From assembly GCF_058153355.1 (NCBI RefSeq), contig NZ_CM177019.1: 64,000 nt of DNA; one strand, given 5' to 3'. The position numbers were made by a program, and so were the translations under genes. Shown piece by piece: positions 41,373 through 64,000 of this stretch. Below the pieces are notes generated by a model. It made no database searches. It was not told where the DNA came from and worked only from the letters and a program-made list of their open reading frames with translations. How positions within the stretch are numbered: the first letter of the stretch is position 1; every line of letters begins with the position of its first letter.

Positions 41373-42881
<1,509 letters not shown>

Positions 42882-42987: not shown

Positions 42988-43902
42988 TTACTGCAGCAGG
43001 CTGGAAACCATGCTGGACATGCTGTTGGACTGTTTCAGCATGGTAATACCGGTCTGCATCAGCACCTGCTGTTTGGTCATGTTGGACGCTTCCGTCGCGT
43101 AATCGGTATCCATAATGTTGCCGATAGCGACTTCGGTGTTGTCCTGCATGCTGGTCAGGTTGTTTGCGGTGTCGTTCAGACGGTTGATAGACGCACCCAG
43201 CTTGGACTGGATCTGCGAAACATCATCCATCGCGGTAGAAATGCTGGTGATCATCTGGTTAGCCGAGCCAGATGCGGTCAGTTCAGTACCGCCAGAAACG
43301 CCTGCGGTGCCCGTGGTGTCAGCCTGATCCGCACTGAAGGAGTTGCTGATAGCAGAAAGATCCGTCACCAGCGTGTTCAGCTGGCTTGAAATATTCACGG
43401 TCATGGTGTCGGAAGATTCCGCTCCCACCTGGAAAGTTACTGCGCTCTGGAACAGACCGTCAGTACCGGTGTTGCTGGTACCGGAAACACCGAACAGGTT
43501 GGTGCCGCCATAAGTGGTGTTTTGCAGCATGTCAGACATCTGCTGACCCAGTTCGTCGTATTCGTCCTGCATCGCCTGCAGATCGTCGTCGCTGTAGGTG
43601 CCGTTCGCTGCCTGAGTTGACAGGTCTTTCATACGACCCAGCACATCAGACATTTCATCGAACATACTGTCGGCGGTTTGCAGCATCGCCGTTGCATCAT
43701 TAATGTTGCTCAGTGCCACACCCATACCGCTGGACTGTGCAGTCAGACGGTTAGCAATCTGTTTGCCTGCGGCGTCATCGGCAGAAGAGTTAATCCGGTT
43801 ACCTGTTGCCAGGCGTTCCATAGATGTAGACAAAGAAGAGCTGCTTTTGCTGATTGCATTAACGGCGGCCATTGAGGCGTTATTGGTGTTAATAGATAAC
43901 AT
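42988..43902 (-). CDS. lafA: Lateral flagellin
   Basis: Start moved to MLSINTNNASMAAVNAI with AAGGAG RBS (track start is an upstream alternative codon); conserved flagellin N- and C-terminal domains. Confidence 0.9.
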   Translation of the reverse strand: MLSINTNNASMAAVNAISKSSSSLSTSMERLATGNRINSSADDAAGKQIANRLTAQSSGMGVALSNINDATAMLQTADSMFDEMSDVLGRMKDLSTQAANGTYSDDDLQAMQDEYDELGQQMSDMLQNTTYGGTNLFGVSGTSNTGTDGLFQSAVTFQVGAESSDTMTVNISSQLNTLVTDLSAISNSFSADQADTTGTAGVSGGTELTASGSANQMITSISTAMDDVSQIQSKLGASINRLNDTANNLTSMQDNTEVAIGNIMDTDYATEASNMTKQQVLMQTGITMLKQSNSMSSMVSSLLQ

Positions 43903-47472: not shown

Positions 47473-48849
47473 TTAGCTGCACATTTCCAGCACCGAATCA
47501 AAAATCTCGGCCCCGGCGGAAATGACTTTCAGATTGGCTTCATAAATTTGTTGATAGGTGATCAGGTTCACCGCCTCTTCGTCCATGCTGACGCCGCTGA
47601 CACTGCTCTGCTGGTTTTGCGCCTCAGAATAAACATTGGACGCGGCAGTCACTTCGGTCTGGTTTTGCTGAGTGTAAATGCCGATATTGCTGATGATTGA
47701 CGAGCACGCTTGCCCGACCGTCACGCTGCCGAGGTTGGCTATCTCCAGCGGCTCAGTGGAGATGTTGATCAGCGCCTGCAGGTTGTCACTGTTGCCGCTT
47801 TCGTCCGGCGAACTGGAGAACGCCAGTTCATCAGCGGTGATATCCGGGTTAACGGTCAGCGGGCCATCGGCATTACTGGCATCGTAAATAAACAGCGGCT
47901 CGCCGGGGTTACCGTTGAGATCGTAGCCCTGCGCCAGCTGGTTGTTGACCGCATCGGCAAACTGCGACGCCATGCTGTTGATGGTGTCGGTCAGCGGCGT
48001 CAGGACGTCGTTTTGATAATCAAAAAGTGCGCCTAATGAACCGCCGGTGTCGGTGGTCATCGTCGAGGTGGTTCCGGCGAAGGTCAGCGACATGGTCGGC
48101 GTGCCATCGGCGTTGGTTTCCAGCGCGATGGTCGAGCTTTGCTGCCCGCTCACCAGCGGCTGACCGTTTTGCAGGGTAACGTTGTAGTTGCCCTGGTCGT
48201 CGATATTGACCTGCACATCCATCATTCCGCTGAGTTCTTCCACCATCTGGTCACGGGCGTCGTACAGCGCGGAGGCGTTATCCCCGTTGGCTTCGGCCTG
48301 GGCGATTTGCTGGTTATAGCTGGCGATGCCGCTGGTGAGGGTGTTAATTTGCGACACCATCGCCTGCTGCTGGCTGATGATTTCCGTGCTTTGCGAGTCG
48401 ATGTAATCCAGCGTGTTATCGATACGCAACGACAGCGCCCCGGCTTCGCTGATCACCTGCTCGCGCAGGGCAGAATCATCGGGGCTGGTGGTCGCTTCGT
48501 TGAGGGCCGCGAAAAAGTTATCGAACCCGCCGCTCAGGCTGCTGTTATCGTCGCTCAATACCGCTTCCAGTTGCGTGAGATACCCTTGCTGGGTGTTGTA
48601 ATAGCCGTAATCGCTGGCGGCATACCACACCTGATTCACCTGATACTGGTTGGAGACGCGACGAATGCTGTCGACCTGCACACCGTTTCCGGCGCTGTTC
48701 GGCGACCCGCCGCTGGCACCGATAGTGCTGATCTCCGCCACCTGGCGGGTGTAGCCCGTGGTCATGGCGTTAGCGGTGTTTTGCGCCGTGACGTTCAGCT
48801 CCACCTGCGCGGTTGATGCGCCGCTGTAGCCGATGTTAATCATGTCCAT
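47473..48849 (-). CDS. lfgK: FlgK-like hook-associated protein 1
   Basis: 458 aa; N-terminal rod/hook motif (TAQNTANAMTTGYTRQ) and FlgK C-terminus. Confidence 0.8.
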   Translation of the reverse strand: MDMINIGYSGASTAQVELNVTAQNTANAMTTGYTRQVAEISTIGASGGSPNSAGNGVQVDSIRRVSNQYQVNQVWYAASDYGYYNTQQGYLTQLEAVLSDDNSSLSGGFDNFFAALNEATTSPDDSALREQVISEAGALSLRIDNTLDYIDSQSTEIISQQQAMVSQINTLTSGIASYNQQIAQAEANGDNASALYDARDQMVEELSGMMDVQVNIDDQGNYNVTLQNGQPLVSGQQSSTIALETNADGTPTMSLTFAGTTSTMTTDTGGSLGALFDYQNDVLTPLTDTINSMASQFADAVNNQLAQGYDLNGNPGEPLFIYDASNADGPLTVNPDITADELAFSSSPDESGNSDNLQALINISTEPLEIANLGSVTVGQACSSIISNIGIYTQQNQTEVTAASNVYSEAQNQQSSVSGVSMDEEAVNLITYQQIYEANLKVISAGAEIFDSVLEMCS

Positions 48850-49042
48850 GTTGGATCCTTACCGGTAAATCGTGCCGGTTAAAAGCGGCGTGAAGTTGGA
48901 GATTCTTAAGTTCCGTAAACCGGGCGCCAGACACCGGATGCAGCCTGCATACGGGCACAAACATAAAAATATGTGCGAACTCGTAGATACTGTTATGGCC
49001 TGCAAGTTTTTTTCTACCCCGGTTTCCCAGATTGCAGGCATG

Positions 49043-50269
<1,227 letters not shown>

Positions 50270-50307
50270 TGATAAGCGTAGCGCATCAGGCAATCTGGCA
50301 CCAGACA

Positions 50308-51021
50308 TCACGCCGCATCACTGTCGGCATCGGGTACGCCAAACTGGCTAATCATGGTGAACGGCACTTCGCCTACACCGGCAACGTTAAGCACCGGAGA
50401 GCTGCCGTCGAGCGGGATGCGCACATCTTCCACTTCGCCGGAGACTTCAATCGGTACTTCTTCTTCCCCGGTATTGGTCACCACCGAGACGTCGTAATCG
50501 CCCGGCGGGATGCCGTAATCCGCCGGGTTAATCGAGAAATCCACTTGGCCTGGCCCAACCGACGAACTCCCTTCCGGGATCAGCGAGACGGTGTAGTCAT
50601 CGCCCGCAGCATCGGTAAAGTGGAGATCGGCGGTGGTACAGGCGTCGTCCAGCGTGGCGCGACCGTTAATGGTCTGGTCACTCACCTGCAAGGCGGTGGT
50701 CTGCACCATAATGTCGTCGCCCACCAGGTTGCCGAGCGCCATCACCTGAATGTTGCTCATCAGCACCGCGTTGGTATTGGCCTGCACGCTCATCTCTTCC
50801 ATCATCGCCACCTGCGCCATCGACGAAAGCTGGTCGATATATTCGGTGGCATCGGTCGGGTCGGTCGGGTCCTGGTTTTGGATCTCAGCGACAAACAGCG
50901 TCAGGAAAGTATCGACGGGCGAGCTATCGCTGCTGCTTGTCGTGTCGCTGGCTGCCACATTATTGCTTTCCGCCGTGGCGGTCGGTTGCGGCGATTGCGC
51001 ATTCAGCGCCAGGGTATTCAT
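50308..51021 (-). CDS. lfgD: FlgD-like hook capping/assembly protein
   Basis: 237 aa; FlgD-type motif FLTLFVAEIQNQDPTDPTD. Confidence 0.8.
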   Translation of the reverse strand: MNTLALNAQSPQPTATAESNNVAASDTTSSSDSSPVDTFLTLFVAEIQNQDPTDPTDATEYIDQLSSMAQVAMMEEMSVQANTNAVLMSNIQVMALGNLVGDDIMVQTTALQVSDQTINGRATLDDACTTADLHFTDAAGDDYTVSLIPEGSSSVGPGQVDFSINPADYGIPPGDYDVSVVTNTGEEEVPIEVSGEVEDVRIPLDGSSPVLNVAGVGEVPFTMISQFGVPDADSDAA

Positions 51022-51452
51022 CAGGCTTCTCCCAGTTTCAGCAGGCTTTGCTGCATACTTTTCACGTTGTTGAGCACATCGACGTTGGTTTCAAAATCGC
51101 GCGAGGCCGACATCATGTCCGCCATCTGTTCCACCACGTTGACGTCGGGATACCAGACATCACCGTTGGCATCCGCCAGCGGCGAATGCGGTTCATAGCG
51201 TTTCACCGCCCCGCCGGTTTGCAGCACGTCCTGCACCTGCACGCTGGCGCCGTCGATCGCATGGCGATGCGTTCCCGCCAGCAGGCTGTGGTGATACATC
51301 GCCGCAAACACCGGGCTGCGCGCTTTATACGCCTGCGCCTCGCTGCCGGCGGGCGCATTGGCATTCGCCAGGTTACTGGCAACGGTATTCAGGCGAATGG
51401 TTTGCGCCGTCATCGCCGAGCCGGAAATCTGATAGATATCAGTAAATGACAT
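51021..51452 (-). CDS. lfgC: FlgC-like proximal rod protein
   Basis: 143 aa with rod N-terminal motif (ASNLANANAPAG) and C-terminal rod motif. Confidence 0.85.
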   Translation of the reverse strand: MSFTDIYQISGSAMTAQTIRLNTVASNLANANAPAGSEAQAYKARSPVFAAMYHHSLLAGTHRHAIDGASVQVQDVLQTGGAVKRYEPHSPLADANGDVWYPDVNVVEQMADMMSASRDFETNVDVLNNVKSMQQSLLKLGEA

Positions 51453-51454
51453 GC

Positions 51455-51766
51455 TTATTTCCCTTCAATGGCCTCTCTGATGCCGCTGATTTGCAGATTC
51501 AGAAAGGTCAGACTGCTTTGATAATCCATACTATTTTGTGAAAACCGCGCCTGTTCGCTGTTCAGTTCCACGGTGTTACCATCTTCCGACGGCTGCATCG
51601 GCACGCGATACTGGACATCCACCGCCGCGTTATTTGCCCGTTGCATCTCCCTGGCAAAATCAATATCTTTAGCCTTGAAATTTGGCGTATCGACATTCGC
51701 CAGATTCGCAGTCAGTAGCTCGGTCCTCTCAAGACGTAACTTCACTGCCTGCGGATGTACTCCCAA
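51455..51766 (-). CDS. lfgB: FlgB-like proximal rod protein
   Basis: 103 aa; LTANLANVDTPNFKAKDIDF rod motif; start codon is non-ATG (TTG or internal GTG), exact start uncertain. Confidence 0.7.
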   Translation of the reverse strand: MGVHPQAVKLRLERTELLTANLANVDTPNFKAKDIDFAREMQRANNAAVDVQYRVPMQPSEDGNTVELNSEQARFSQNSMDYQSSLTFLNLQISGIREAIEGK

Positions 51767-51871
51767 TGCTTATTGAAAACTGATCCCCATTTCTTGCGCC
51801 ACTCCCGCTTCAATCCGCATACGCTAAGCAATCGCTGCGCCAATTTTTAAGTAACTGATGAGAAAGGGTTT

Positions 51872-52609
51872 ATGAGTTTTCAATTTTGCAGGCGGAAGTT
51901 TTATTTCCTCCTGGCGCTGGCCTTACCGGGCTACGCCGCCGTCCATCCCGTGCAACATAGCGCGCGGGAACAAGTCAACGCCCAGGTGCTGAGCGCCGCC
52001 AGCCAGCAGATTGAATCGCTGGCACAACAGCGGCAGTGGCATGACTATCGCTACACCTTTAAGGTCTACATTCCCTCGCAGATTGCGACCGCCGCGCCCT
52101 GCGCTACGGCCCCCGGCGTCACGCTGACTTCGCCTGCGGAAATCGCTCTCAACCGGATGAACTTCACCGTCAGTTGCCCGCAAAGCTGGCAGATGAACGT
52201 TGCGGTGCGCCCGGATGTTCTGGTGCCGGTGGTGATGGCGAAGTCACTGGTTGCCCGCGATACGCCGCTCACGGCAAATGATGTGGAGCTGAAGCCCTAC
52301 AACGTCAGCGCCCAGCGGCGGGATGTGCTGATGGATCTCAATGATGCGATTGGTTTAAGCAGCAAACATGCCCTGCAACCAGGCAGGCCGCTTACCAAAG
52401 AAGAACTGGTTTCGCCAGTGCTGATCGAGCGCGATCAGCCGGTGATGATTGTTTACCAGAGCGCGGGGATCACCGCCTCGATGCCCGGCGTGGCGCTGAA
52501 AAATGGTCGCAAAGGGGAAATGGTGAAAGTACGTAACGCCAGCAGCCAGCGGGTCATTAGCGCAATAGTGGCGGAAAGCGGCGTGGTGACAACGGTAAGC
52601 GCGGAGTAA
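51872..52609 (+). CDS. lfgA: FlgA-like P-ring assembly chaperone
   Basis: 245 aa with signal peptide, divergent from lfgBCD. Confidence 0.7.
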   Translation: MSFQFCRRKFYFLLALALPGYAAVHPVQHSAREQVNAQVLSAASQQIESLAQQRQWHDYRYTFKVYIPSQIATAAPCATAPGVTLTSPAEIALNRMNFTVSCPQSWQMNVAVRPDVLVPVVMAKSLVARDTPLTANDVELKPYNVSAQRRDVLMDLNDAIGLSSKHALQPGRPLTKEELVSPVLIERDQPVMIVYQSAGITASMPGVALKNGRKGEMVKVRNASSQRVISAIVAESGVVTTVSAE

Positions 52610-52687
52610 TTTACGCAGGCGATTAAAGTTTTGCCGCCTGTTAACCGCTTTACCGGAGTAACCCCCAAATACCAAGACGAGGTTGCG

Positions 52688-52966
52688 ATGAAAATCACCC
52701 CGACGATGCCAGGCAATCGCCCGACAGCCACAACGGCAGGCTCCAGCCAGCCGCGTAAAAGTACGGCGACCACCACCACGACGCTGAGTGCCGACGACAT
52801 TACCCAGGCGGGATTGCAGTCTGCCCAGCAAACGCTGAACGACCAGCAAGAGAGCGATATCGACAGCGATAAAGTGGCGCAAATGCAGGCGATGCTGGCG
52901 TCCGGCAGCCTGCAAGTGGACACCGAACAGTTAGCCAGCGACATGCTGAGTTTTTTCCAGAACTAA
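52688..52966 (+). CDS. lfgM: FlgM-like anti-sigma-28 factor
   Basis: Start moved to MKITPTMPG with GAGG RBS; 92 aa, C-terminal helical sigma-binding region. Confidence 0.7.
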   Translation: MKITPTMPGNRPTATTAGSSQPRKSTATTTTTLSADDITQAGLQSAQQTLNDQQESDIDSDKVAQMQAMLASGSLQVDTEQLASDMLSFFQN

Positions 52967-52978
52967 GAGGCCGATGAA

Positions 52979-53407
52979 GTGAGTATCCGGTTACAACAGG
53001 TGAAGGCGTTGTTGCAGGGAATTCGTGACGACGACGCACTGTACGATTCCCTGCGCGAACTTCTCCAGCATCAGCGGATCTGCATGATTCGCCGCGCCAG
53101 CGAAGAGTTGCTGGCAGTAAACGACGAGATAACGCAGCACTATGAGCAGTTGCATGGGCATAGCCATCAGCGGCACAGCCTGCTGCAACTGCTGGGTGTC
53201 AGCGTAAATCGTGACGGTCTGGCGCAGGTTTTCGCCTGGCTTCCGGCGGTACAAAAAGCGGCAGCACAACAGTTGTGGCAACGCCTGGAGCAAAAAGCGG
53301 AACGCTGCAAAGCCTATAACGATAAAAACGGCGAGCTGTTGATTCGTCAGTATGAATTTATTCAGTCGTTTTTAGGCAGCGAAGCAGATTTTCTGTATCA
53401 GGAATAA
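52979..53407 (+). CDS. lfgN: FlgN-like export chaperone
   Basis: 142 aa helical protein after flgM; GTG start with AAGAGG RBS. Confidence 0.6.
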   Translation: MSIRLQQVKALLQGIRDDDALYDSLRELLQHQRICMIRRASEELLAVNDEITQHYEQLHGHSHQRHSLLQLLGVSVNRDGLAQVFAWLPAVQKAAAQQLWQRLEQKAERCKAYNDKNGELLIRQYEFIQSFLGSEADFLYQE

Positions 53408-53533
53408 CGCGAATACCTTCCCCATAGCGGAAACGGATTTTCCGCCTGATTTCCAATCCTTTGTTTTTGATTAAAAAAATTCCCGGCACGCTTATTGCAG
53501 ATTCCGCAAAGGAATAAAGACTGGAAGCCTCCT

Positions 53534-54463
53534 ATGAGTTTTATTGAATGTTACGAACCGGAATATGTGCGCAATTTTATGGCGCAATATCCCGATTCGC
53601 CTTTATACGTCAGCAAGGTGTGGAAGAATGAGATTCGCCAGAGCCTGGCATTGACCGATATTGCCAGTTGCAAAGCAGTGCTCAACGATGCCAGGGCCTT
53701 TGAATTACAGCTTACCTATCGCCCTGTGGAAGAAAATGCCGCAGCGCTCTCCGCGCGCGATGTGATAGTCAACCAGATAATTTTGAGCACCCTCACGCTC
53801 CCCGATTTAACCCCAGAGCTTTCACTGTATGCCGTCGGGATTTTGCTCTCCCGCGCCCGTAAAATGCCGGGCAGAGACGGCGATACTCTCGCCCGGCTGA
53901 CAGCACTGCCGCAGGCGCTGGCCGATCACGCCCAAATAGGCACGTTACAGGCACAGTTCGCCCAGCTACCGCCTGTGCCACTGCTGGCGCGCCAACTGGT
54001 GACGCTGCTCGGGAGTTTTGCATTTGACTGGTCGATACTGCCAGAAAGCCCGCGCAAAAATTCGCTGCCGTTGCAGGTAACCTTGCTAACGCTGCATGAC
54101 GCCAACAGCGAAGCCCTGATGCAGCAGCAGCTACAGACACAGTGGCAAACTACCTGGCAACAGCATTTTGCCACCGCTCCGTGGATGATGCGTAACTGGC
54201 TGATTTACCGGGTTTATCACGATGTGATTGGCCAGGCAGACGGGGCGGGTTATTTCCCGCTGGTGTGTGACTTTTACCTCATCCGCACGTTAATCAGTTT
54301 ATGGACGCTGGATGATTCACCGCTGCGGCAGGAGGATATTTTCGCCCTCTTCGCGGTGTTTGAACGCTGGCGAGTGAGTGAAAATGCCGTGCTGATTCGC
54401 CAGCAAATTCAGTCATTATGTGCCGCCGACCCGCTGCTTTCAGCGTTTTCGTTGCTGCCGTGA
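53534..54463 (+). CDS. Hypothetical protein (Flag-2 variable region)
   Basis: About 310 aa ORF from first ATG; no recognisable motif. Confidence 0.4.
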   Translation: MSFIECYEPEYVRNFMAQYPDSPLYVSKVWKNEIRQSLALTDIASCKAVLNDARAFELQLTYRPVEENAAALSARDVIVNQIILSTLTLPDLTPELSLYAVGILLSRARKMPGRDGDTLARLTALPQALADHAQIGTLQAQFAQLPPVPLLARQLVTLLGSFAFDWSILPESPRKNSLPLQVTLLTLHDANSEALMQQQLQTQWQTTWQQHFATAPWMMRNWLIYRVYHDVIGQADGAGYFPLVCDFYLIRTLISLWTLDDSPLRQEDIFALFAVFERWRVSENAVLIRQQIQSLCAADPLLSAFSLLP

Positions 54464-54482
54464 GTCGCTCTGTGCGCGCTTT

Positions 54483-54594
54483 GCCCCTCACCCTAACCCT
54501 CTCTCCAAAGGGGCGAGGGAACCGATCGAGCACGGTGTTAAAATCGGCGCTGGTTTTCTCCCTCTCCCTGTGGGAGAGGGCCGGGGTGAGGGGC
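54483..54594. repeat. GC-rich palindromic intergenic repeat pair (BoxC-like)
   Basis: GCCCCTCACCCTAACCCTCTCTCCAAAGGGGCGAGGGAACC and CTCCCTCTCCCTGTGGGAGAGGGCCGGGGTGAGGGGC forming long-range inverted repeats. Confidence 0.4.
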
Positions 54595-54651
54595 ATCAGC
54601 GCGCACATTCAGCACCTCCATCACATTCACCCACTAACTCACCCAAACACC

Positions 54652-57096
54652 ATGCCAACACCAAGCATCATCAAAACACTCGCCACTCACCGCGAAAAAC
54701 CGTTCGTCAGCGTCGTCACGCCAACCTGGAATCGTGGCGCATTTCTGCCGTACCTGCTCTATATGTACCGCTATCAGGACTACCCGGCAGACCACCGCGA
54801 ACTGGTCATCCTCGACGACTCACCGCAAAGCCATCAACACATCATCGACCGCCTGACCAATGGCACGCCGGAAGCCTTTAACATCCGCTACATCCATCAC
54901 CCGGAAAAACTGCCGCTGGGCAAAAAACGCAATATGCTCAACGAACTGGCGAGCGGCGAATACATCCTTTGCATGGACGATGACGACTATTACCCGGCAG
55001 ATAAAATCTCTTACACCATCGGCATGATGCAAAAACACCGGGCGCTGATCTCCGGTTCCGACCAGATCCCCATCTGGTACAGCCATATCAACCGCATCTT
55101 TCAAAGCCGCAGCTTTGGCCCGCATAACATCCTCAACGGCACCTTTTGCTATCACCGTAACTACCTGAAAAAGCACCACTACGATGATGATTGCAATTTA
55201 GGCGAAGAGAAAAGTTTCACCGACAATTTCAGTGTTAACCCGCTGCAACTGCCCGGCGAGCGCACGATTTTGTGTATCTCGCACAGCCACAACACCTTTG
55301 ATAAAGACTTTATTCTCGGGGCCAGCACGCCTGTAAATGCCGAACTGAGCGATATCGTCACCGATCCGCTGCTACGCAATGCTTATCTGAGTCTGCATAA
55401 CGCCACTCATCACCAGGCGATCAACCATCAGGCGATCGATCAGATAGTTGTTGTGAATCTGGATAAACGCCCGGATCGTTTACGGCAGATCCGTGAAGAG
55501 CTGGCATTGCTGCATATTCCGCCTGAAAAAATTACCCGCCTTGCCGCCTGTGAAGATGAAAACGGCCAACGGGGACGACGCCAGTCGCACTTGCAGGCGC
55601 TGCGCCTGGCGCAACAGCACGGCTGGCAAAATTACCTGCTGCTGGAAGATGACGCGGTTATTCTCAAGCAGGAGAAACATATTCAGGTACTGAACACGCT
55701 GCTGGCGAGCCTGGCGAAAATTCCCTGGGAGGTGATGAGCCTTGGTGGCGAAATTTCGCAAGGAACGATGCTGAAAAGTTTGCCGGGGCTGGTACACGCG
55801 CAGGACTGCCGCAAAGTGTGTGCTTATCTGGTGAACAGCCGCTACTACCCACAACTGGCGCAGCAGATGAGTAACGATGAGCACTCGCTGGAAGACGGCT
55901 GGCAGCCACTGCTGCGCACCGACAAATGGCTGGCCTGTTACCCGAGCCTTAGTTATCAGCGACCGGGCTTTAGTGATATCGAGAAAAAAGCGACTGATAA
56001 CATTAACCACTACTTCAATAAGTTACCCGTAGCCACCAAGCCATCCACATTACCCATCGCCGACACCATCGGCTTTTTTATGGAAACCTCCTTCCACTAC
56101 GCGCTCTATCGCCCAATCATCACCGCCCTACAGGCGCAGGGGCAGAGTTGCACGCTGGTGATCAACGATCGCGTGTTTAAACCATTTTTGGGTGAAATGC
56201 TGGAAACACTGAAAAGCATCGACGATCCACAGCTTAAAGGTATGCGCTTGTCTGAGATGCAGGAGCACAGTCAGCGGGTGAAATGCCTGGTCAGCCCCTA
56301 CCACACGCCCGCGCTCAATGGCATTTCACCCGTGAACGTTCGCGCCATGTACGGCTTAGCCAAAGAGACGTGGAACCACGCCGACTGGAACCGTTTTTAT
56401 CAGCGCATTTTGTGTTACAGCCACTACAGCCAGCAGGCACTAAAACATTTCGGTAGCGCAAAAGTGGTCGGCAACCCGCGCTTCGACGCCTGGCATAACG
56501 GCACGTTTGACCGCGCCCTGCCGGAAAATATCCAACCCGATTCCCGTAAACCTACGGTGCTCTACGCCCCCACGTTTGGCGCATTAAGCTCCCTGCCCCA
56601 CTGGGCAGAAAAATTGGGGCGCTTGAGCGGTAATGTAAACCTGATTTGCAAACTGCACCACGGCACCAGCTCGCGCCCGGAAGAAGCCGCATCGCTGACC
56701 CTGGCACGCAGGCATTTAAAACAGCGCACCGACTCCGTCCGCCACACGCTGGCGCTGCTGGCAAAGGCCGATTACGTGCTCACCGATAACAGCGGCTTTA
56801 TTTTCGATGCTATCCACGTTGATAAGCGGGTGATCCTGCTCGACTTTCCGGGCATGACGGAACTGCTCGACGGTGAGAAAAGTTATTCCACACCGGAGAG
56901 CGCCGACCAGCGAATCCGCGAAATATTACCGGTGGCTCATGATATGGCTGAGCTGCGTTACTTATTGTCAGAGGCGTTTGACTGGGGGGCGGAACAGGCG
57001 CGGCTTACGGAGATTCGCCATCACTATTGTGACGCGTTTATGGATGGCAAGGCGGGAGAACGGGCGGCGATGGCGATTGTGGAGGCATTGGGTTAA
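54652..57096 (+). CDS. Three-domain glycosyltransferase: GT2 + GT25-like + TagF-like CDP-glycerol glycerophosphotransferase domain
   Basis: Start moved past the repeat to MPTPSII; GT2 DxD (MDDDDYY), GT25-like middle domain (VVVNLDKRPDR), C-terminal VLYAPTFG motif resembling TagF YAPTWR. Confidence 0.7.
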   Translation: MPTPSIIKTLATHREKPFVSVVTPTWNRGAFLPYLLYMYRYQDYPADHRELVILDDSPQSHQHIIDRLTNGTPEAFNIRYIHHPEKLPLGKKRNMLNELASGEYILCMDDDDYYPADKISYTIGMMQKHRALISGSDQIPIWYSHINRIFQSRSFGPHNILNGTFCYHRNYLKKHHYDDDCNLGEEKSFTDNFSVNPLQLPGERTILCISHSHNTFDKDFILGASTPVNAELSDIVTDPLLRNAYLSLHNATHHQAINHQAIDQIVVVNLDKRPDRLRQIREELALLHIPPEKITRLAACEDENGQRGRRQSHLQALRLAQQHGWQNYLLLEDDAVILKQEKHIQVLNTLLASLAKIPWEVMSLGGEISQGTMLKSLPGLVHAQDCRKVCAYLVNSRYYPQLAQQMSNDEHSLEDGWQPLLRTDKWLACYPSLSYQRPGFSDIEKKATDNINHYFNKLPVATKPSTLPIADTIGFFMETSFHYALYRPIITALQAQGQSCTLVINDRVFKPFLGEMLETLKSIDDPQLKGMRLSEMQEHSQRVKCLVSPYHTPALNGISPVNVRAMYGLAKETWNHADWNRFYQRILCYSHYSQQALKHFGSAKVVGNPRFDAWHNGTFDRALPENIQPDSRKPTVLYAPTFGALSSLPHWAEKLGRLSGNVNLICKLHHGTSSRPEEAASLTLARRHLKQRTDSVRHTLALLAKADYVLTDNSGFIFDAIHVDKRVILLDFPGMTELLDGEKSYSTPESADQRIREILPVAHDMAELRYLLSEAFDWGAEQARLTEIRHHYCDAFMDGKAGERAAMAIVEALG

Positions 57097-57107
57097 ACCA
57101 CAGAAGT

Positions 57108-57204
<97 letters not shown>

Positions 57205-57422
57205 ACGAACAGCGCACTTATCTACCCTTCGATTTTAAATACATCTCTTTATGGCTGGTGAATCGGTAAAGTCGTAGATTGTGGGGGAGCGATCTTTATG
57301 AATTCTGAAAAAAACCTGAATCTTGCTAAACATATTGCTTATCATAAATATAGGTTACACACTATAAAAATTACTGCGTAATTTAACATTTTGTCTAAAA
57401 ATGATAGAGCATAAACGATAAC

Positions 57423-58244
57423 ATGACTTATAATAAAAAAGTAACTTCCGGTACAACAAGCCAGAAACAAAACAACATTGTCACTCAAAAAATATCTCGC
57501 CCAAAGGAATTGTTTCTATTATTTTGGGTTGATGAGTCCGATGATAGCCGACGTTCTATTTTTGAAGAAGCATGTCTGACGCGTTATTTCAATATCCTTT
57601 ACTCCCCCGAGTATAAAAAAGAAACACAGATAGTTTATCATTTATCAATTAACACATTTAATCAAATCAAAGAAATATTAGAAATCTTTATAAACAAGAA
57701 TGGAGGTAAAACTAAAGCAAAGGTTAAAGAAGTCAGTTTATTCTCACATGGGGGGCCAATTCATGGTCCTACAACCTCAAACTCTATAAATACACCTTCC
57801 GTGCCTAAATACCCACAACAAATGGACATATCCGGAGGATGGGATTCAATTGATTTTAACTGGTCAAACAATGCTATGTTTGTTATGTATGGTTGTCGCA
57901 CTAGTTATGCAAGTGATGATTCAGGACAAGGTTTTGCCAGTAAATTATCCCTATTAGATAATTTTAAGGACGTGAATGTCTGGGGTCAAACAGAAAGTAC
58001 TTATCCATCTTATTTCCCAGATATCAGGACAACGTCGATTATGAGGTCAATAAATATAGGTTGGTCTTTTTCACCAACATACATGGTTGCCAATTCTGAA
58101 GGTCAAGGATGGGATGCATTATTCCCGGATGATCGAAATCCATTAAAAGCTCTCCCTATGCAGTGTTATAATAATGGGACATTGATTTTAACCTGCGATC
58201 AAAGCAATTTTAATGATCACCGGAAGAATAAATCAAATGATTAG
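57423..58244 (+). CDS. Hypothetical protein, strongly AT-rich orphan
   Basis: 273 aa ORF in a low-GC segment; no recognised domain. Confidence 0.45.
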   Translation: MTYNKKVTSGTTSQKQNNIVTQKISRPKELFLLFWVDESDDSRRSIFEEACLTRYFNILYSPEYKKETQIVYHLSINTFNQIKEILEIFINKNGGKTKAKVKEVSLFSHGGPIHGPTTSNSINTPSVPKYPQQMDISGGWDSIDFNWSNNAMFVMYGCRTSYASDDSGQGFASKLSLLDNFKDVNVWGQTESTYPSYFPDIRTTSIMRSINIGWSFSPTYMVANSEGQGWDALFPDDRNPLKALPMQCYNNGTLILTCDQSNFNDHRKNKSND

Positions 58245-58791
58245 CATTGTATTGAGAAGCATTGTATTGAGAAGCTTTATTTTATTATTCATAATAATAG
58301 TGTATCCGGATTATAATAAAAACCCACCTGCCTTTGAAGTATATGGGGAAAATGACATACTTAAGGATATGGTTATTAATATGAAAACTTATAGATACCA
58401 TAGTAGGGAAAACTCTTCCCCCACAGCTATAGTGCAAACCATCCTTTTTAAAGGAAATATACAGCAAGTTTTTGAAAGCAATGACATGGGTGGTGCGAGC
58501 TTCTTTTTTTCTTATAACAATAAGGTTGAAACGCTGGTAACAGACGCTTTCTTTTTAAATAAAAAATTAGACAAACTGCATGATGCAAATATTTTTGAGG
58601 TTATAAAGCATAAGGAAAACATCGTTATTAGATATTACAAGTGCAAAATTGAATATATGCAAAGAGAAAAATTTATCGAAATAGAGATATCAACAAACAA
58701 AAATAGTTATTTTAACAAGAATGGAATAAAACAAAAAGATACAAATAAATATAACACATATTTCTTCAATTACTTTGAGTCTCAAAAATAA
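58213..58791 (+). CDS. Hypothetical membrane-anchored protein, strongly AT-rich orphan
   Basis: 192 aa, N-terminal hydrophobic helix, Lys/Asn-rich; contains a 15-bp perfect tandem duplication near the start; overlaps upstream ORF. Confidence 0.4.
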   Translation: MITGRINQMISIVLRSIVLRSFILLFIIIVYPDYNKNPPAFEVYGENDILKDMVINMKTYRYHSRENSSPTAIVQTILFKGNIQQVFESNDMGGASFFFSYNNKVETLVTDAFFLNKKLDKLHDANIFEVIKHKENIVIRYYKCKIEYMQREKFIEIEISTNKNSYFNKNGIKQKDTNKYNTYFFNYFESQK

Positions 58792-58794
58792 ATT

Positions 58795-59199
58795 TTATTT
58801 TGTCATGCGCGCCCTCCTAATCACCTCAATAATCCCCGTCGTCGACACTGACGGCGTGCGGGGGAAATAGACCACCTCACAAATATACGCGAAGCTATCA
58901 AACTTCCCCGCCCAGTCATCGCCCATCACCAAAACATCCGCACTGTAACCGCGCAGATATTCCGCTTTCAGCGCCAGCGATTCCTCGAGAAATACGCCAT
59001 CCACGCACGCCAGCCCGGCGATAATCGCCATGCGGTCATCCTGAGGGTAAACCGGTGCCCTGCCCTTTTTAGCAATGTTCAGGGCGTCAGACGATACGCC
59101 GACCAGCAGCCGTTCGCCCAGCGTGCGGGCGCGTTGTAAAAGGAGCAGATGACCGACATGAAACACATCGAAGGTGCCGAAGGTGATGACCGTTTTCAT
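58795..59199 (-). CDS. Cytidylyltransferase, TagD-like (glycerol-3-phosphate cytidylyltransferase family)
   Basis: Start moved to MKTVITFGTFDVFHVGHL (HxGH nucleotidyltransferase motif) with GGAG RBS; directly downstream of lfiJ. Confidence 0.8.
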   Translation of the reverse strand: MKTVITFGTFDVFHVGHLLLLQRARTLGERLLVGVSSDALNIAKKGRAPVYPQDDRMAIIAGLACVDGVFLEESLALKAEYLRGYSADVLVMGDDWAGKFDSFAYICEVVYFPRTPSVSTTGIIEVIRRARMTK

Positions 59200-59201
59200 G
59201 G

Positions 59202-59636
59202 CTACTCCGCTAATTTGTGCCGTAGCCAGCACTGAACGGCGATGTCATCCACCGCTTTTTGCGCTTTCGCCGTGGCACTTTCTTGCTGCTCGCGGCGTTT
59301 GTCATCCAGCGTCAGGGCCACCACTTTCTCTTCGCATGCCGCCGCCGTCAGGTTTTTCTGCATTCGCGTAGCCTTGATGTTAGCCAGCGTTTTTTCCTGC
59401 TCCTGCCAGGCGATCACTTTGCGCAAGGTGCCTTTGTAGCCGCTGACGTTTTTCAGCGATTCCACCGACGCCGCCGCGCCCGCAGATGTTTTCTCCACCA
59501 GGTAGCCTAACGCTTTGATATTGTTGTCATAGCCCGCGCAAATCTGTTTTTGCTTTGCCAGCTCGACGGTTTTGTCTTTGACCGATTTATCCCGCAGGCG
59601 CTGCAATTGCGCGAGGGTGTCGATGATTTGTCGCAT
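59202..59636 (-). CDS. lfiJ: FliJ-like flagellar export protein
   Basis: 144 aa coiled-coil protein following fliI. Confidence 0.7.
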   Translation of the reverse strand: MRQIIDTLAQLQRLRDKSVKDKTVELAKQKQICAGYDNNIKALGYLVEKTSAGAAASVESLKNVSGYKGTLRKVIAWQEQEKTLANIKATRMQKNLTAAACEEKVVALTLDDKRREQQESATAKAQKAVDDIAVQCWLRHKLAE

Positions 59637-59638
59637 AG

Positions 59639-60976
59639 TTACTGTTCTGCCTTTTTGGCACCAGGAAAGAGGATTTGCAGGCGGCTTTGTACCAGTTCGA
59701 GGGAGGCGGGTTCGCGCATCTCCTGGCGTAAAAATCGCTCGATGGCCGGGAACATTTTCACCGCTTTGTCGACGCTGGCATCCGCGCCTGCCACGTAGCC
59801 ACCGAGTGGGATCAGCGGTTTGATCTCCATATAGGCGGCGTAGTTTTGCTTTAACGCGCGAGCGGATTGCTGATGTTCCGGGCGGGTGACCTGGTTCATG
59901 CAGCGGCTGATCGACTGGCCGATATCGATGGCCGGATAGTGCCCCGCTTCCGCCAGTTTGCGGGTTAATACGATATGCCCGTCCAGCACCGCGCGGGCGC
60001 AGTCGACGATGGGATCTTGCTGGTCGTCGCCTTCCGCCAGCACGGTGTAGATGGCAGTCATCGATCCCGCGCTTTCGCTGTTGCCTGCGCTTTCGACCAG
60101 TTTGGGGATCATGCCGAATGCCGACGGCGGATAGCCTTTGGTAGCGGGCGGTTCGCCAAGAGAGAGCGCAATTTCACGCTGCGCCATCGCATAGCGGGTC
60201 AGGGAATCCACCAGCAGCAAAACGTGATGCCCGCGGTCGCGAAACCAGGCGGCGATGGAGTGGCACAGTTCGGTGGCTTTCAGGCGCATCAGCGGCGATT
60301 CATCGGCGGGCGCGACGACGACGATAGACTTCGCCAGCCCGTCCGCGCCCAGTGAATGGTCGATAAACTCTTTCACTTCGCGCCCGCGTTCGCCAATCAG
60401 CCCGACCACCACGATGTCGGCTTTGGTCTGGCGGGTGATCATCCCCAGCAGCACGCTTTTCCCGACGCCGCTGCCCGCCATTAGCCCGACGCGCTGGCCT
60501 TTGCCGATGGTCAGCAGACCGTTGATCGCTTTTACACCCACATCTAAGGGTTCGTCCACCGAACGGCGGGTTAAGGGATTGACCGAGGGCGGCAACGGCG
60601 GCAGAAGATCGTTGCCGTTCAGGCGACCTTTGCCATCCAGCGGTTCGCCGAGGCCATTCACCACGCGGCCTAACCAGCTTTCGCCAATCAAAATATCGTG
60701 GGCTTTTTCTTCCGGGAAGACACGCGCCCCCGCCATCAGGCCAACTGGCTGTTTGAATGGCATTAAATAGGTGATGTCGCGATTAAAGCCCACGGCCTGC
60801 GCGTCAATCAGCGTGTGGTTGGCACTTTCGATGCGGCACAACTGCCCGGTCATTAACGGGCAGCCGACGCTCTCCAGCAGAATGCCGTTCAGGCGCACCA
60901 GCCGTCCGGCGACGCGAGCCAGCGGGATCGACTCCAGCGAACGCAGGGCGTTATCGAAAGCAGAAAAATCACTCAC
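59639..60976 (-). CDS. lfiI: Flagellum-specific ATPase FliI
   Basis: 445 aa; Walker A GSGVGKS and Walker B, F1-ATPase-like. Confidence 0.9.
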   Translation of the reverse strand: MSDFSAFDNALRSLESIPLARVAGRLVRLNGILLESVGCPLMTGQLCRIESANHTLIDAQAVGFNRDITYLMPFKQPVGLMAGARVFPEEKAHDILIGESWLGRVVNGLGEPLDGKGRLNGNDLLPPLPPSVNPLTRRSVDEPLDVGVKAINGLLTIGKGQRVGLMAGSGVGKSVLLGMITRQTKADIVVVGLIGERGREVKEFIDHSLGADGLAKSIVVVAPADESPLMRLKATELCHSIAAWFRDRGHHVLLLVDSLTRYAMAQREIALSLGEPPATKGYPPSAFGMIPKLVESAGNSESAGSMTAIYTVLAEGDDQQDPIVDCARAVLDGHIVLTRKLAEAGHYPAIDIGQSISRCMNQVTRPEHQQSARALKQNYAAYMEIKPLIPLGGYVAGADASVDKAVKMFPAIERFLRQEMREPASLELVQSRLQILFPGAKKAEQ

Positions 60977-61679
60977 TCTGCGTCTCCGGCGTCAGCGTCT
61001 CTTGCAGCGCGGTCATGCATTGTTCAAGGCGATGCTCGCAGCCGATATCCAGTTCTGATTTATCGGTGATCACCCGGCATTCCCCCGGCGGCAAATCCGG
61101 CGAAGGCGTCAGCCCCCATTCGCTGACCTTTTCCGGCACCGCGTCGCGCAGGCGGTTAAACTCTTCCGTGCTCAACATCACTTGCAGGGTTTCCGGCATC
61201 GCCGGGAAGGCCGCCAGCGCCTCTTCCACCAGCGCCAGTAACTGCGTCGGTTGCAGCGCCAGTTCGCAGCGAATCACCTGGCGGGTGACTTTTTCCACCA
61301 GTTGCAGCAAATCTTCCCGCTGTTTACGTTCGATATGGGCGAGGAAGTCGTTCACTTTACCGCTGATGGCTTCCAGCGGCTGCGCCGCCTCAATAAATTT
61401 CTTGCGCCCTTCCTGCTGCCCGGCGAGGCTGCCTTCGGTGTAGCCCTGACGTTGCCCCTCGGCAAAACCTTGCTGATGACCTTCGCTAAAGCCCTGCTCC
61501 TGCCCCTCGGTCATGCCCTGAGCAAACCCTTTTTGCAGCCCTTCCTGAAAACCGTCCATCAACTGGCGCTGGTAATCGGCGGCGCTAATGCTGGCAGTGA
61601 GCGGTTCTCCGGTCACCGCACGCTGGCGCGGCGGGAAACGGTGCAGGCGATAGCGCCCGCGCAGTGTTTCAATGGTCAT
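60969..61679 (-). CDS. lfiH: FliH-like flagellar assembly protein
   Basis: 236 aa, between fliG and fliI. Confidence 0.75.
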   Translation of the reverse strand: MTIETLRGRYRLHRFPPRQRAVTGEPLTASISAADYQRQLMDGFQEGLQKGFAQGMTEGQEQGFSEGHQQGFAEGQRQGYTEGSLAGQQEGRKKFIEAAQPLEAISGKVNDFLAHIERKQREDLLQLVEKVTRQVIRCELALQPTQLLALVEEALAAFPAMPETLQVMLSTEEFNRLRDAVPEKVSEWGLTPSPDLPPGECRVITDKSELDIGCEHRLEQCMTALQETLTPETQSE

Positions 61680-61682
61680 GGG

Positions 61683-62693
61683 TTACTCCGCCGTCTGTTC
61701 CGCAAAGAGCTGTAGCTGAAGTTCGCCCGCCTCTTCCAGTTCACGGGCGATACCCATGATTTCGCGGCGGATCTGTTCGATACGGCTGACCGGCACCGGC
61801 CCCAGACGCGCAGTGATCGCTTCCAGTTGCTGCACCTGACGTTTTGGCATCACCGCGTAAATGGAGCGACGTAACAGAGCTTCGGTGCCTTTCAGCGCCA
61901 CCGCCCAGTCTTCCATCGGCACTTCGTCGAGCAGGCGTCGGCGCACCTCTTCGTTCTGGCGACTGAGGATAAAGAAGTCGTACATCTCATCCTGCAACTG
62001 CTCCAGTACGTCTTCGTCGCGCTCGCGCATCTGGTCGAGGATCACCTGCTGGTTGCCCTGGAAGCGGTTGACAATATCCGCCGCCTGTTTGATGCCTTTC
62101 ACCTTCGAGCCGTGCTCTGAAAGCACCGACAGGCCACGTTCGATCAGACGATCCAGTTCATCCACCACGTCGCGGTTGACGTCGTTGAGTTTCGCTACCC
62201 GGTAAAGAATTTCGTTTTGCACCGATTCGTTGAGATAAGAGAGCACCGCTGCCGAGATTTCCGGCGTCAGAAACGCGAGGAATACCGCCTGCAATTGCAG
62301 ATGCTCTTCGGAGATCAGCATCGCCAGCTGGCGCGGTTCCACCCATTGCAGGCGCGCCATCCGCGAGCGGATCTCATCGCCGTAGATGCCGTTGATCACG
62401 CTGCTGGCGATCTCGGTGCCCAACGCCTTGTTAAGAATGCCCTGCAACATGGATCGCGATGCACCGTTGATCCCGCTCTGTTCGCGGAATTCATCAAAGA
62501 AGTTATTGATCACCTTGCGCGCCATGCTGGTTTTGACGCCGGAAAGCCGCGCCATGTTTTCGCTCAGGCGCACTACTTCTTCGCGGCTGAGTTTTTGCAT
62601 CACCGTTGCCGCCGCTTCTTCGCCCAGACACAGCAGCAGGATCGCCGCCTGTTCCAGGTAGCTGTTGCTCTTATTTATTGTCAATTCGCTCAT
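61683..62693 (-). CDS. lfiG: Flagellar motor switch protein FliG
   Basis: Start moved to MSELTINKSNSYLEQAAILLL; FliG middle and C-terminal domains. Confidence 0.85.
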   Translation of the reverse strand: MSELTINKSNSYLEQAAILLLCLGEEAAATVMQKLSREEVVRLSENMARLSGVKTSMARKVINNFFDEFREQSGINGASRSMLQGILNKALGTEIASSVINGIYGDEIRSRMARLQWVEPRQLAMLISEEHLQLQAVFLAFLTPEISAAVLSYLNESVQNEILYRVAKLNDVNRDVVDELDRLIERGLSVLSEHGSKVKGIKQAADIVNRFQGNQQVILDQMRERDEDVLEQLQDEMYDFFILSRQNEEVRRRLLDEVPMEDWAVALKGTEALLRRSIYAVMPKRQVQQLEAITARLGPVPVSRIEQIRREIMGIARELEEAGELQLQLFAEQTAE

Positions 62694-64000
62694 TGCTGGT
62701 AATCCATTGTCTGAGAACTTCGGCAACGCGATCGGTATCGCTCATGGCCAATTTTTGCAGGAACTCGAGTTTCACTTCGAGGCCAGAACTCTGGGACGGC
62801 AGGCTGTCATCGCCAGGCAGCGACGGCAGGTCGACATTTTTACGCTCCTCTTCCGGCACGGCGATCCACGGTTCGCTGATGGCTTCCGGTTCTGGTGTGA
62901 TAACCGGCGCACGTACCGCCGTCAGCCGTTTCATCAGCGGGCGCACCACAAAGAACAGCAGCAACAGCGCCAGCAGGCCGCAGCCAATCAGCCGCACCCA
63001 CGCCAGTACACTGTCATCTTTCCACAGTGGAATAACCGGTTCGACAGGCACCGCCTGCGGCACAAAGTTGAGCAGTGATAAGGTGAGATTGTCACCACGC
63101 TGGGCGTCGATTCCGGCGGCATTGTTCAGCAACGCGGTCAGTTGCGTGGTTTGCTCCGGCTTCCAGTTTTTCAGCGCCGGGGCGTTTTGATTGAGCACCA
63201 CCGCCACGTTGAGGCGTTTCACCGCAAAGCCGGGATGCTGAATATGCTGGACGCTGCGGTCGTAAGAGTAGTCGCGCTTACTTTCGCTGTGTTTGGAAAG
63301 CGCTTCCGGCGAGCGGTTTTCTTCCGCACCGTTGGTCATCTGATTCGCTGCAATCGGCGGACGGTTACTGAGTGAACCGGGCACGCCCATCGCCACCTGA
63401 TTGGTGTCGCTGTCCAGCACGCTCTCTTCGCGGTTGATTTTCGGCGCGTCGCCGTAGTGTTCCTGAGTTTCGTCGATGGTGCTGAGGTCGAGATCCGGCA
63501 TCACACTGACGCGGTAATTCCCCATGCCAACCAGCGAATCCAGCACGTTCGCCACGCTGGCACGGGTTTTGTCCTGAATATCTTTGAGGATCTGATCGCG
63601 TTTACGGGTCGCGGCAGAAACCGCCTCGCCGGCGCCAATGCCGTCGGTCAGCAGATTTCCCGCCTGATCGACCACGCTGACTTTACTGGCTTGCAGCCCC
63701 GGAATACTGCCGGACACCAGATGCACAATGGCGTTCACCTGGTCCATATTCAGCTTCGCGCCGTAATGCAAGCGCACCACCACCGAGGCACTGTTTTGCG
63801 GCTCATCGCTGACCACAAACGAGCTTTCTTCGTTGATCGCCAGATGCACCCGCGCGCTCTCCACCGCGTCCAGCGACATGATGCTCTGCGCCAGCTCCCC
63901 TTCGAGACTGCGTTTATAGCGCACGTTCTGCACGAACTGACTGCTGCCGAGCACTTCGTCTTTGTCCATCAGCTCGTAGCCGCTGGGCAATATCGCCTGC
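62671..64000 (-). CDS. lfiF: Flagellar MS-ring protein FliF, partial (N-terminus beyond window end)
   Basis: C-terminal about 440 aa of FliF-like protein; ORF open to window edge. Confidence 0.85.
   Translation of the reverse strand, partial: QAILPSGYELMDKDEVLGSSQFVQNVRYKRSLEGELAQSIMSLDAVESARVHLAINEESSFVVSDEPQNSASVVVRLHYGAKLNMDQVNAIVHLVSGSIPGLQASKVSVVDQAGNLLTDGIGAGEAVSAATRKRDQILKDIQDKTRASVANVLDSLVGMGNYRVSVMPDLDLSTIDETQEHYGDAPKINREESVLDSDTNQVAMGVPGSLSNRPPIAANQMTNGAEENRSPEALSKHSESKRDYSYDRSVQHIQHPGFAVKRLNVAVVLNQNAPALKNWKPEQTTQLTALLNNAAGIDAQRGDNLTLSLLNFVPQAVPVEPVIPLWKDDSVLAWVRLIGCGLLALLLLFFVVRPLMKRLTAVRAPVITPEPEAISEPWIAVPEEERKNVDLPSLPGDDSLPSQSSGLEVKLEFLQKLAMSDTDRVAEVLRQWITSNERIDNK

Follow-up and report, generated by a model that had tools for sequence, protein, structure and literature searches.

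The open reading frame that precedes the glycosyltransferase gene in the 64-kb window (the whole stretch of DNA analysed here) is lafV, a known conserved gene of the second (lateral) flagellar locus of Escherichia coli, Flag-2, and it is a real gene under purifying selection. Its product is a relative of FliB that has kept the first β-strand and the FliB_C body of that protein while losing an insert of ~95 residues that carries the [4Fe-4S] cluster. The function recorded for LafV in the databases has probably been mis-transferred, a modest new point that is drawn from sequence comparison.

Position and conservation of lafV in the Flag-2 locus

Alignment of the window with E. coli SMS-3-5 gives the gene order dinB, lafU to lafB, lafA, lafW, lfgL, lfgK and lfgD–lfgB, followed by lfgA-M-N, lafV, the glycosyltransferase, two hypothetical genes, the cytidylyltransferase and lfiJ-I-H-G-F (Table 1). 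lafV thus lies between lfgN and lfiJ of Flag-2, in the interval lfiJ–lfgN that De Maayer 2020 defined as VR1 (PMC6993521), and its length is close to that of the E. coli and Citrobacter LafV proteins. The reading frame comprises 309 codons and a stop codon, 310 codons in total, so that the 310-aa protein of the original prediction is present where it had been placed once the stop codon is discounted; the gene order proposed there, on the same strand as lfgN, ahead of the glycosyltransferase and parted from it by a GC-rich palindrome, is likewise what the comparison displays. An alternative TTG start at 53495 would add 13 residues and is unused by RefSeq in the orthologues. The first gene of the run was named lfgA after the FlgA orthologues of E. 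coli SMS-3-5 and 2020CK-00188. The coordinates given for lfgM are those of the mechanical open reading frame, and RefSeq uses a later start.

Table 1. Features of the window that surround lafV or bear on its function
Feature	Position	Strand	Remarks
Second insertion sequence copy	41648-42981	+	Between lafB and lafA; near-identical to the first copy
lafA	42988..43902	-	Lateral flagellin, presumed modification target; 100% identical to E. coli 'lateral flagellin LafA'
IS110-family insertion sequence	48943-50276	-	Replaces lfgE-lfgJ (blastn vs SMS-3-5)
lfgA	51872-52609	+	Flag-2 P-ring chaperone, first in the lfgA-M-N-lafV run; orthologue annotated FlgA
lfgM	52631-52966 (ORF)	+	Anti-sigma-28 factor; Pfam FlgM 8e-10, TIGR03824 5e-13
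lfgN	52979-53407	+	Flagellar export chaperone FlgN; Pfam FlgN 2e-18
lafV	53534..54463	+	Cysteine-less short-class FliB_C-only protein; ATG start; 309 aa
Compound G+C-rich palindromic repeat	54471..54607		Between lafV and glycosyltransferase; 137 bp
Glycosyltransferase	54652-57096	+	814 aa; putative GT2-1 of De Maayer; Glycos_transf_2 at 20-189, 5.9e-18
Two overlapping ORFs	57423..58791	+	273 aa and 192 aa, inside VR1; hypothetical in SMS-3-5
Cytidylyltransferase-like gene	58795..59190	-	Pfam CTP_transf_like 9e-19

The palindrome occupies most of the 188-nt spacer between lafV and the glycosyltransferase gene and is built of a perfect outer inverted repeat of 10 nt (54471-54480/54598-54607) and inner arms of 40 nt (54482-54521/54556-54595). 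The motif has no second occurrence within the 64-kb window and belongs to the repeats dispersed through the genomes of E. coli. A megablast search with positions 53400-54700 as query returned 9367 places in 4552 records, with the whole query covered by only 1277 of them. The entire stretch is carried by 1277 of 5426 complete E. coli genomes, approximately a quarter, in which the copies sit between flgN and the glycosyltransferase and bear the product name 'lysine-N-methylase' or 'hypothetical protein'. When 51700-54800 was scanned for promoters and terminators, no signal exceeded that of shuffled sequence, and lafV was left without a convincing promoter.

The gene is already known and has been catalogued in Flag-2 ever since the locus was first described. 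In the survey of De Maayer, FliB-like proteins of VR1, 'previously termed LafV' and divided into LafV1-LafV10, occur in 342 of the 592 flag-2 loci, and 341 contain glycosyltransferases; nine of the ten LafV orthogroups measure 299-318 aa and the remaining one 228 aa (PMC6993521). LafV6 (311 aa) is found in 219 strains from 6 genera of Enterobacteriaceae, a total nearly equal to the 222 strains that carry GT2-1, the commonest VR1 transferase with 828 aa (PMC6993521). The window protein shares the VR1 position and the length of LafV6 of the Enterobacterales Flag-2 with no difference and, judged by sequence, fits LafV6, just as the neighbouring transferase fits GT2-1. The protein had been called uncharacterised and devoid of recognisable motifs. 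The first description holds insofar as no published experiment on LafV was found in the literature searched, although a name and a RefSeq product name exist. The second does not, since the Pfam family PF27117 (FliB_C) is annotated on a 97%-identical homologue and on nearly all full-length LafV homologues; the local copy of Pfam-A returned no family for LafV, PF27117 being apparently newer than that copy.

Protein searches place LafV in a well populated group, with 83 protein clusters matching at E<=1e-3; the majority measure 308-315 aa, and the sources are Escherichia, Shigella, Pseudocitrobacter, Citrobacter and Phytobacter. Scanning a single genome of each species located lafV at 24 genome loci in at least 7 genera and added Enterobacter, Leminorella and Cedecea, among others. 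Identity to the window protein is 86-97% for the E. coli clusters and 52-60% for Citrobacter, and the exact sequence is held at NCBI as HFG3510084.1, 'lysine-N-methylase [Escherichia coli]'. Even where identity falls to 40%, the frame is unbroken, with 307-315 aa in at least 7 genera. Pairwise dN/dS of lafV (Nei-Gojobori) ranges from 0.12 to 0.26. Relative to E. coli SMS-3-5 the value is 0.133, similar to those of the adjacent glycosyltransferase (0.125) and of lfgN (0.149), while the structural genes of the locus lie below lafV at 0.02-0.05. The AF2 model, computed from a 79-sequence alignment, has a mean pLDDT of 95.6 and a pTM of 0.93 and displays a small sheet of four strands, after which the body consists entirely of helices. 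The original prediction had allowed for a spurious open reading frame should the sequence be unconserved elsewhere; conservation in other genomes shows that it is not, and together with dN/dS rules out both a spurious frame and a recent pseudogene. The sole point in favour of a chance reading frame is the lack of a family from the local Pfam-A copy, and with conservation, selection, synteny and a confident predicted fold all opposing it, that reading deserves practically no credence. As a gene, lafV is ordinary.

Comparison of LafV with FliB

The profile search and the structure prediction that had been proposed as checks both proved informative, the former tying LafV to short and long relatives within the FliB family and the latter giving the confident fold described above. 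LafV matches the NCBIfam FliB equivalog NF038110 with 38 bits (E 1.4e-9), short of the 85-bit cutoff, and aligns through its residues 30-279 to positions 106-362 of the 373-position profile. Searching 1.84 billion representative proteins with a profile gave 139 matches in two length classes. Short relatives (297-327 aa) align from residue 1, and in long relatives (390-448 aa) residue ~110 pairs with LafV residue ~30. The N-terminal motif Y-x-P-x-[FY]-V-x-x-F is common to all classes. In long FliB it is followed by CX4CX3CC and a further ~85 residues with three more invariant cysteines, and alignment columns 20, 25, 29, 30, 89, 98, 116 and 139 are 100% Cys in these proteins. In the window LafV, CX4CX3CC is absent, with Ala17 in column 20 and gaps in columns 25, 29 and 30; of the further cysteine columns, 89 and 98 are gaps, 116 is Asp21 and 139, the Cys of 'SCPE', is Asp42. 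The cysteine-less class to which LafV belongs conserves no cysteines other than C6 and C46.

The FliB_C body, by comparison, is recognised in LafV by the profile search, by PF27117 on its homologues and by a matching AF2 topology. The model of a 401-aa FliB-like protein (pLDDT 94.3) displays the element order E2-9, [14-107], E108-112, E116-121, H126-134, E141-148 and then helices, and that of LafV E3-9, E25-29, E33-38, H43-50, E58-64 and then helices. The two orders match outside ~14-107, and LafV is thus best described as FliB with an insert excised rather than as an N-terminal truncation. The missing domain was sought as a separate coding unit and excluded as such by a six-frame motif scan and a check of the upstream frames: in-frame extensions stop within 25 codons at 28 of 28 LafV loci, leaving no hidden upstream exon, and the window holds no separate open reading frame with the Cys motif apart from one antisense artefact inside lafV. 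No structural similarity of LafV to solved members of the Rossmann (class I), SET or radical-SAM folds was detected, nor any similarity to a known transferase fold or family.

The excised segment includes the cluster ligands of FliB. In the Salmonella protein, C17, C22, C26 and C27 hold a single oxygen-sensitive [4Fe-4S] cluster; a quadruple Cys mutant loses the cluster, which is essential for SAM-dependent methyl transfer (Wang 2021, PMC8598068). The 401-aa representatives from our profile search carry the same C17/C22/C26/C27 numbering. LafV shares with Salmonella enterica FliB (~401 aa) the first β-strand motif and the entire FliB_C body, but lacks FliB residues ~14-107 with the [4Fe-4S] domain, its ligands and three more conserved Cys; in addition, lafV lies in Flag-2 beside a glycosyltransferase, whereas fliB lies beside fliC. 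The N-terminal part of full-length FliB resembles the YkgJ family (PF03692, CxxCxxCC) (PMC8598068), and one FliB relative in UniRef carries a YkgJ-type cysteine-cluster name; this CxxCxxCC part is wholly absent from LafV.

A second short class of FliB_C proteins, exemplified by Buttiauxella noackiae WP_064555145 and by proteins of Cedecea davisae and Enterobacter sp. R1, has the length and the internal deletion of LafV and displays a C-x-C-x2-C motif. In a neighbour-joining tree the two short classes are sister clades apart from the long forms. The C-x-C-x2-C class keeps four Cys, in columns 25, 27, 30 and 139, which from their pattern could be metal or cluster ligands, whereas the class of LafV keeps none. 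Its genes adjoin glycosyltransferase and cytidylyltransferase genes, much as those of the LafV class adjoin the glycosyltransferase.

The most conserved motif of the FliB_C domain, N-[YW]-L-x-Y-R-x-Y-H-D (the region of N221, Y225 and H229), is retained in LafV, and the cysteine-less class conserves the polar residues W30, E33, R35, R174, K175, D189, N191, H229 and R280. In an Escherichia subclade the conserved F-P that follows the FliB_C motif has become I-G, beside a 4-residue deletion, which hints at further drift in Escherichia LafV.

Loss of the catalytic insert and of all conserved cysteines, together with the eroded F-P motif, could be taken to mean that LafV is a decaying, functionless fliB remnant carried along with the locus and an inert passenger at least in this genome. 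The state of Flag-2 in the window adds to this. Approximately 5.3 kb spanning lfgE-lfgJ are missing relative to E. coli SMS-3-5, their place being taken by an insertion sequence whose transposase matches Pfam DEDD_Tnp_IS110 and Transposase_20. Its second copy is 99.3% identical to it over 1334 bp (100% over 1290 bp in a second comparison) and lies next to REP (naRNA4) elements, with Rfam RF02564 matches at 41376-41658. With lfgE-lfgJ replaced by the IS110-family element, Flag-2 here cannot build a flagellum, and LafV is probably idle in this strain, whatever its role elsewhere. Shortened LafV versions of 172-281 aa are also present in databases. The deletion, however, is specific to this genome, the lfgE-lfgJ region being intact in its closest relatives (L011, L012 and L024). 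The unbroken frame across genera, a dN/dS that is not ~1 and the compact, very confidently predicted fold also oppose decay, and an inert remnant is improbable. An initial idea that the lfgE-J deletion is common to the Pseudocitrobacter vendiensis and Escherichia sp. loci was rejected on the coordinates, which show those loci to be intact.

The glycosyltransferase cassette and the lateral flagellin

The glycosyltransferase that follows lafV is a multidomain protein. Beyond its N-terminal catalytic domain, the C-terminal region is CDP-glycerol glycerophosphotransferase-like, with a Glyphos_transf match at 605-728 that lies below the cutoff (E 0.0017), and the middle region, 300-560, has no Pfam match. 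A GT25-like assignment of this middle part was dropped as unsupported by Pfam. The two overlapping open reading frames further downstream give only a weak DUF4347 match; E. coli SMS-3-5 carries both genes, and neither protein has a tblastn match in 28 LafV loci (Citrobacter, Enterobacter and others). Of these 28 loci, 23 contain the cytidylyltransferase, which probably provides the module with a CDP-activated donor.

The neighbourhood of lafV was surveyed by tblastn with the window proteins against these 28 loci, of which L008 was left out as uninformative, its contig ending just upstream. LafV directly adjoins the same glycosyltransferase, represented by the N-terminal and middle parts, at all 27 informative loci, which fall into two gene orders. 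All cysteine-less loci display lfgM-lfgN-LafV-glycosyltransferase, with the N-terminal, middle and C-terminal parts of the transferase fused; in distant genera the gaps narrow to as little as ~20-30 nt. The C-x-C-x2-C class (L009 and L032-L034) displays the order glycosyltransferase (N-terminal and middle parts), LafV, cytidylyltransferase, and the TagF-like part is encoded elsewhere; in L009 genes of this arrangement overlap by 4 nt. From the two gene orders it follows that the adjacency of LafV and glycosyltransferase outlasts rearrangement and divergence to 26% identity. Synteny within the cysteine-less class is largely inherited, and the independent support therefore amounts to two gene arrangements and not to 27 loci. 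The suggestion in the original prediction that the gene is part of a modification module is supported: within VR1 this glycosyltransferase is the constant direct neighbour of LafV, and a cytidylyltransferase is usually close by. LafV, the multidomain glycosyl/glycerophosphotransferase and the cytidylyltransferase form a conserved flagellin-modification cassette in VR1. The survey totals for LafV and for glycosyltransferases agree with this pairing. In flag-1, by contrast, only two strains depart from the mutual exclusion of full-length fliB and glycosylation islands (PMC4875605).

LafV is the fastest-evolving member of the cassette, as measured by tblastn identities to the window proteins. In Citrobacter LafV reaches 53-57%, the GT2 domain 77-80% and LfgN 69-76%, and across the same loci LafV is 40-57% identical against 68-80% for the catalytic domain of the transferase. 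A rate of this kind fits a binding partner better than a catalytic core. It also counts against the reading in which LafV is itself an enzyme of another specificity, for example one that modifies a glycan or glycerophosphate substituent and not the flagellin polypeptide. The strict adjacency to the glycosyltransferase, the frequent linkage to the cytidylyltransferase and the TagF-like domain, and the persistence of conserved polar residues in the cysteine-less class would suit such an enzyme. However, LafV is unlike any known transferase fold or family, and VR1 regions with proposed glycan methylation already encode ordinary class I methyltransferases (PMC6993521), which together with the identities make this reading decidedly improbable.

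The presumed substrate, LafA, is intact in the window with 304 aa. It contains 6 Lys, none of them in residues 93-233, and 80 Ser+Thr, ~26% overall. Each of 100 LafA homologues contains 4-10 lysines, of which 0-5 fall in the central region. FliB, in contrast, methylates surface lysines in the D2/D3 domains of its flagellins, at up to 16 sites in FliC and 18 in FljB (PMC7181671), and LafA differs from both in lacking D2/D3 and exposed lysines; the flagellin with many surface lysines that is expected of a FliB substrate is thus not found here. The Ser/Thr-rich, Lys-poor exposed region of LafA, as read from its sequence, suits O-linked decoration better than lysine methylation.

These properties bear directly on the published interpretation, in which LafV is a methylase (PMC6993521). 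An active flagellin lysine-N-methylase would have to use SAM directly through the FliB_C site, either with no cluster at all or with one borne by a partner whose gene lies elsewhere, and its targets would be the few lysines of LafA or another flagellar protein. The homology to FliB extends over ~250 residues, the most conserved residues of the C-domain are kept (N221, Y225 and, in part, the F-P motif), purifying selection on lafV resembles that on its enzyme neighbours, and 1-5 central lysines are present in some LafA homologues. Radical chemistry is not a chemical necessity for lysine N-methylation. Against such an activity stand the loss of the four cluster ligands with the entire Fe-S insert, the cluster being essential in FliB, and a score far from the equivalog cutoff. 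The LafA of this genome offers no lysine in the exposed region, F-P has become I-G in the Escherichia subclade, neither a Rossmann nor a SET nor a radical-SAM fold is detected, and the window contains no open reading frame for a Cys cluster. Taken together, we consider an active lysine methylase unlikely.

Proposed function of LafV

With the Fe-S ligands absent, LafA poor in lysine and the pairing with the glycosyltransferase constant, the label 'lysine-N-methylase' is doubtful. We tentatively favour, without going so far as to call it probable, a LafV that acts as a flagellin-directed accessory of the glycosylation/glycerophosphate module and not as a methylase of the FliB type. LafV would no longer methylate lysines in the way of FliB, and would instead serve as a LafA-directed partner of the adjacent transferase, either non-catalytic or of altered function. 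One possibility is that it holds LafA, unfolded or partly folded, close to the export gate or presents it there, allowing the Ser/Thr-rich surface region to be decorated prior to export.

Several considerations run counter to this accessory role. The retained N221/Y225 motif could, on sequence grounds, be a cluster-independent catalytic or SAM-binding site. In addition, the quadruple Cys mutant of FliB may merely be misfolded, in which case the cluster might have a structural or redox-sensing role and no catalytic one. The occasional central lysines of LafA homologues belong among these counterpoints as well, as does the largely inherited synteny with the glycosyltransferase.

A more specific form of the accessory role treats LafV as a 'pseudo-FliB', in which the FliB_C body, a flagellin-recognition or scaffold module freed of the Fe-S insert, has been recruited as the targeting subunit of a glycosyl/glycerophosphotransferase. 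This proposal, which takes as an assumption that FliB_C is a flagellin-binding module, is conceivable but on balance doubtful. Were it true, the label 'lysine-N-methylase' would be wrong on thousands of enterobacterial Flag-2 genes.

The value of these observations is that of an annotation warning within the field of flagellin post-translational modification, and they open no major question. The product name 'lysine-N-methylase' was transferred by homology before the dependence of FliB on [4Fe-4S] had been shown, the Flag-2 survey (PMC6993521) being older than the 2021 biochemistry of FliB (PMC8598068), and no mention of the missing Fe-S domain of LafV was found in the Flag-2 and FliB literature searched. 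For the family as a whole, the sequence of LafV suggests a testable division of FliB between a catalytic insert and a substrate-handling body, and if LafV is indeed such a targeting subunit, FliB itself would be a two-part enzyme composed of an Fe-S catalytic insert and a flagellin-binding body.

Loss of lfgE-lfgJ and the IS110-family element

Relative to E. coli SMS-3-5, the Flag-2 locus of the window lacks ~5.3 kb carrying lfgE, F, G, H, I and J, which encode the hook, rods, L/P rings and FlgJ, and an IS110-family element lies in their place. The deletion is particular to the genome of the window, as the same region is unbroken in the three closest loci with LafV relatives (L011, from Pseudocitrobacter vendiensis, L012 and L024). 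The lateral flagellum is disabled in this genome by the loss of these genes. The two copies of the element in the window share 99.3% identity across 1334 bp and flank lafA, lafZ, lafW, lfgL and lfgK in inverted orientation. REP sequences seem to be the insertion sites of the element, since the second copy directly abuts three naRNA4/REP matches.

Features of the Flag-2 locus and its insertions (window coordinates)
Feature	Position	Strand	Description
REP elements	41376-41658		three naRNA4/REP matches (RF02564)
IS110-family element, second copy	41648-42981		between lafB and lafA
lafA	42988-43902	-	lateral flagellin, 304 residues
IS110-family element, first copy	48943-50276		48987-50309 relative to SMS-3-5
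DEDD transposase of the element	49092-50072	-	326 aa
Compound G+C-rich palindrome	54471-54607		between lafV and transferase
Transferase	54652-57096		814 aa; GT2 domain, ~260-aa middle region, TagF-like region
ORF, 273 aa	57423-58244		in VR1; overlaps 192-aa ORF
ORF, 192 aa	58213-58791		in VR1; overlaps 273-aa ORF
Cytidylyltransferase-like gene	58795-59190		opposite end of VR1 from transferase

Relatives and junctions of lafV

The exact LafV protein of the window is deposited under E. coli. The Flag-2 segment at 47975-63220 displays 96.5% nucleotide identity to the P. vendiensis type-strain assembly, and its identity to most E. coli genomes is slightly lower (92-96%). The locus may have been exchanged horizontally, or this greater closeness to P. 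vendiensis may point to a taxonomic anomaly. The full-length FliB relative closest to LafV is a 405-aa protein of Limnobaculum (Budviciaceae; L010, 6001-7218) with the CX4CX3CC motif, which is encoded between an efp/radical-SAM (epmB-like) gene pair and groES-groEL, outside any flagellar locus, yet is labelled a flagellin lysine-N-methylase.

Upstream of lafV, a hairpin with a 7-bp stem and a 5-nt loop (GCGGAAA-CGGAT-TTTCCGC, 53427-53445) lies just 3' of the lfgN stop codon, with a T-rich stretch after it. The terminator scan made no call there. A gap of just ~20 nt separates lfgN from lafV in distant genera, and thus lafV is probably co-transcribed with lfgAMN in those genomes. Downstream, the palindrome is a dispersed repeat in E. 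coli and has no Rfam match. A megablast search with 53400-54700 matched 9367 places in 4552 E. coli records. Most of these places must be copies of the palindrome because the whole query is found in only 1277 records. The palindrome is missing at the tighter junctions between lafV and the glycosyltransferase gene in more distant genera.

Putative VR1 cargo and proposed flagellin modification

Within variable region 1 (VR1, lfgN to lfiJ), the 273-aa and 192-aa ORFs display a weak DUF4347 match and nothing else. Both are found in SMS-3-5, and tblastn was negative in all 28 loci searched (Citrobacter, Enterobacter and others); they look like cargo gained horizontally.

LafA of the window contains 6 Lys among its 304 residues, none of them between residues 93 and 233, together with 80 Ser/Thr residues. 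This Lys-poor, Ser/Thr-rich composition, likewise displayed by 100 LafA homologues, suggests a heavily O-modified flagellin surface. The middle region of the transferase has no Pfam match, and the protein weakly matches CDP-glycerol glycerophosphotransferase (TagF-like), a part that is a separate gene in other genera but fused here. The combination of the GT2 domain, this weak TagF-like region and the cytidylyltransferase-like gene in VR1 suggests that LafA, or its glycan, is decorated with glycerol-phosphate in a teichoic-acid-like manner.
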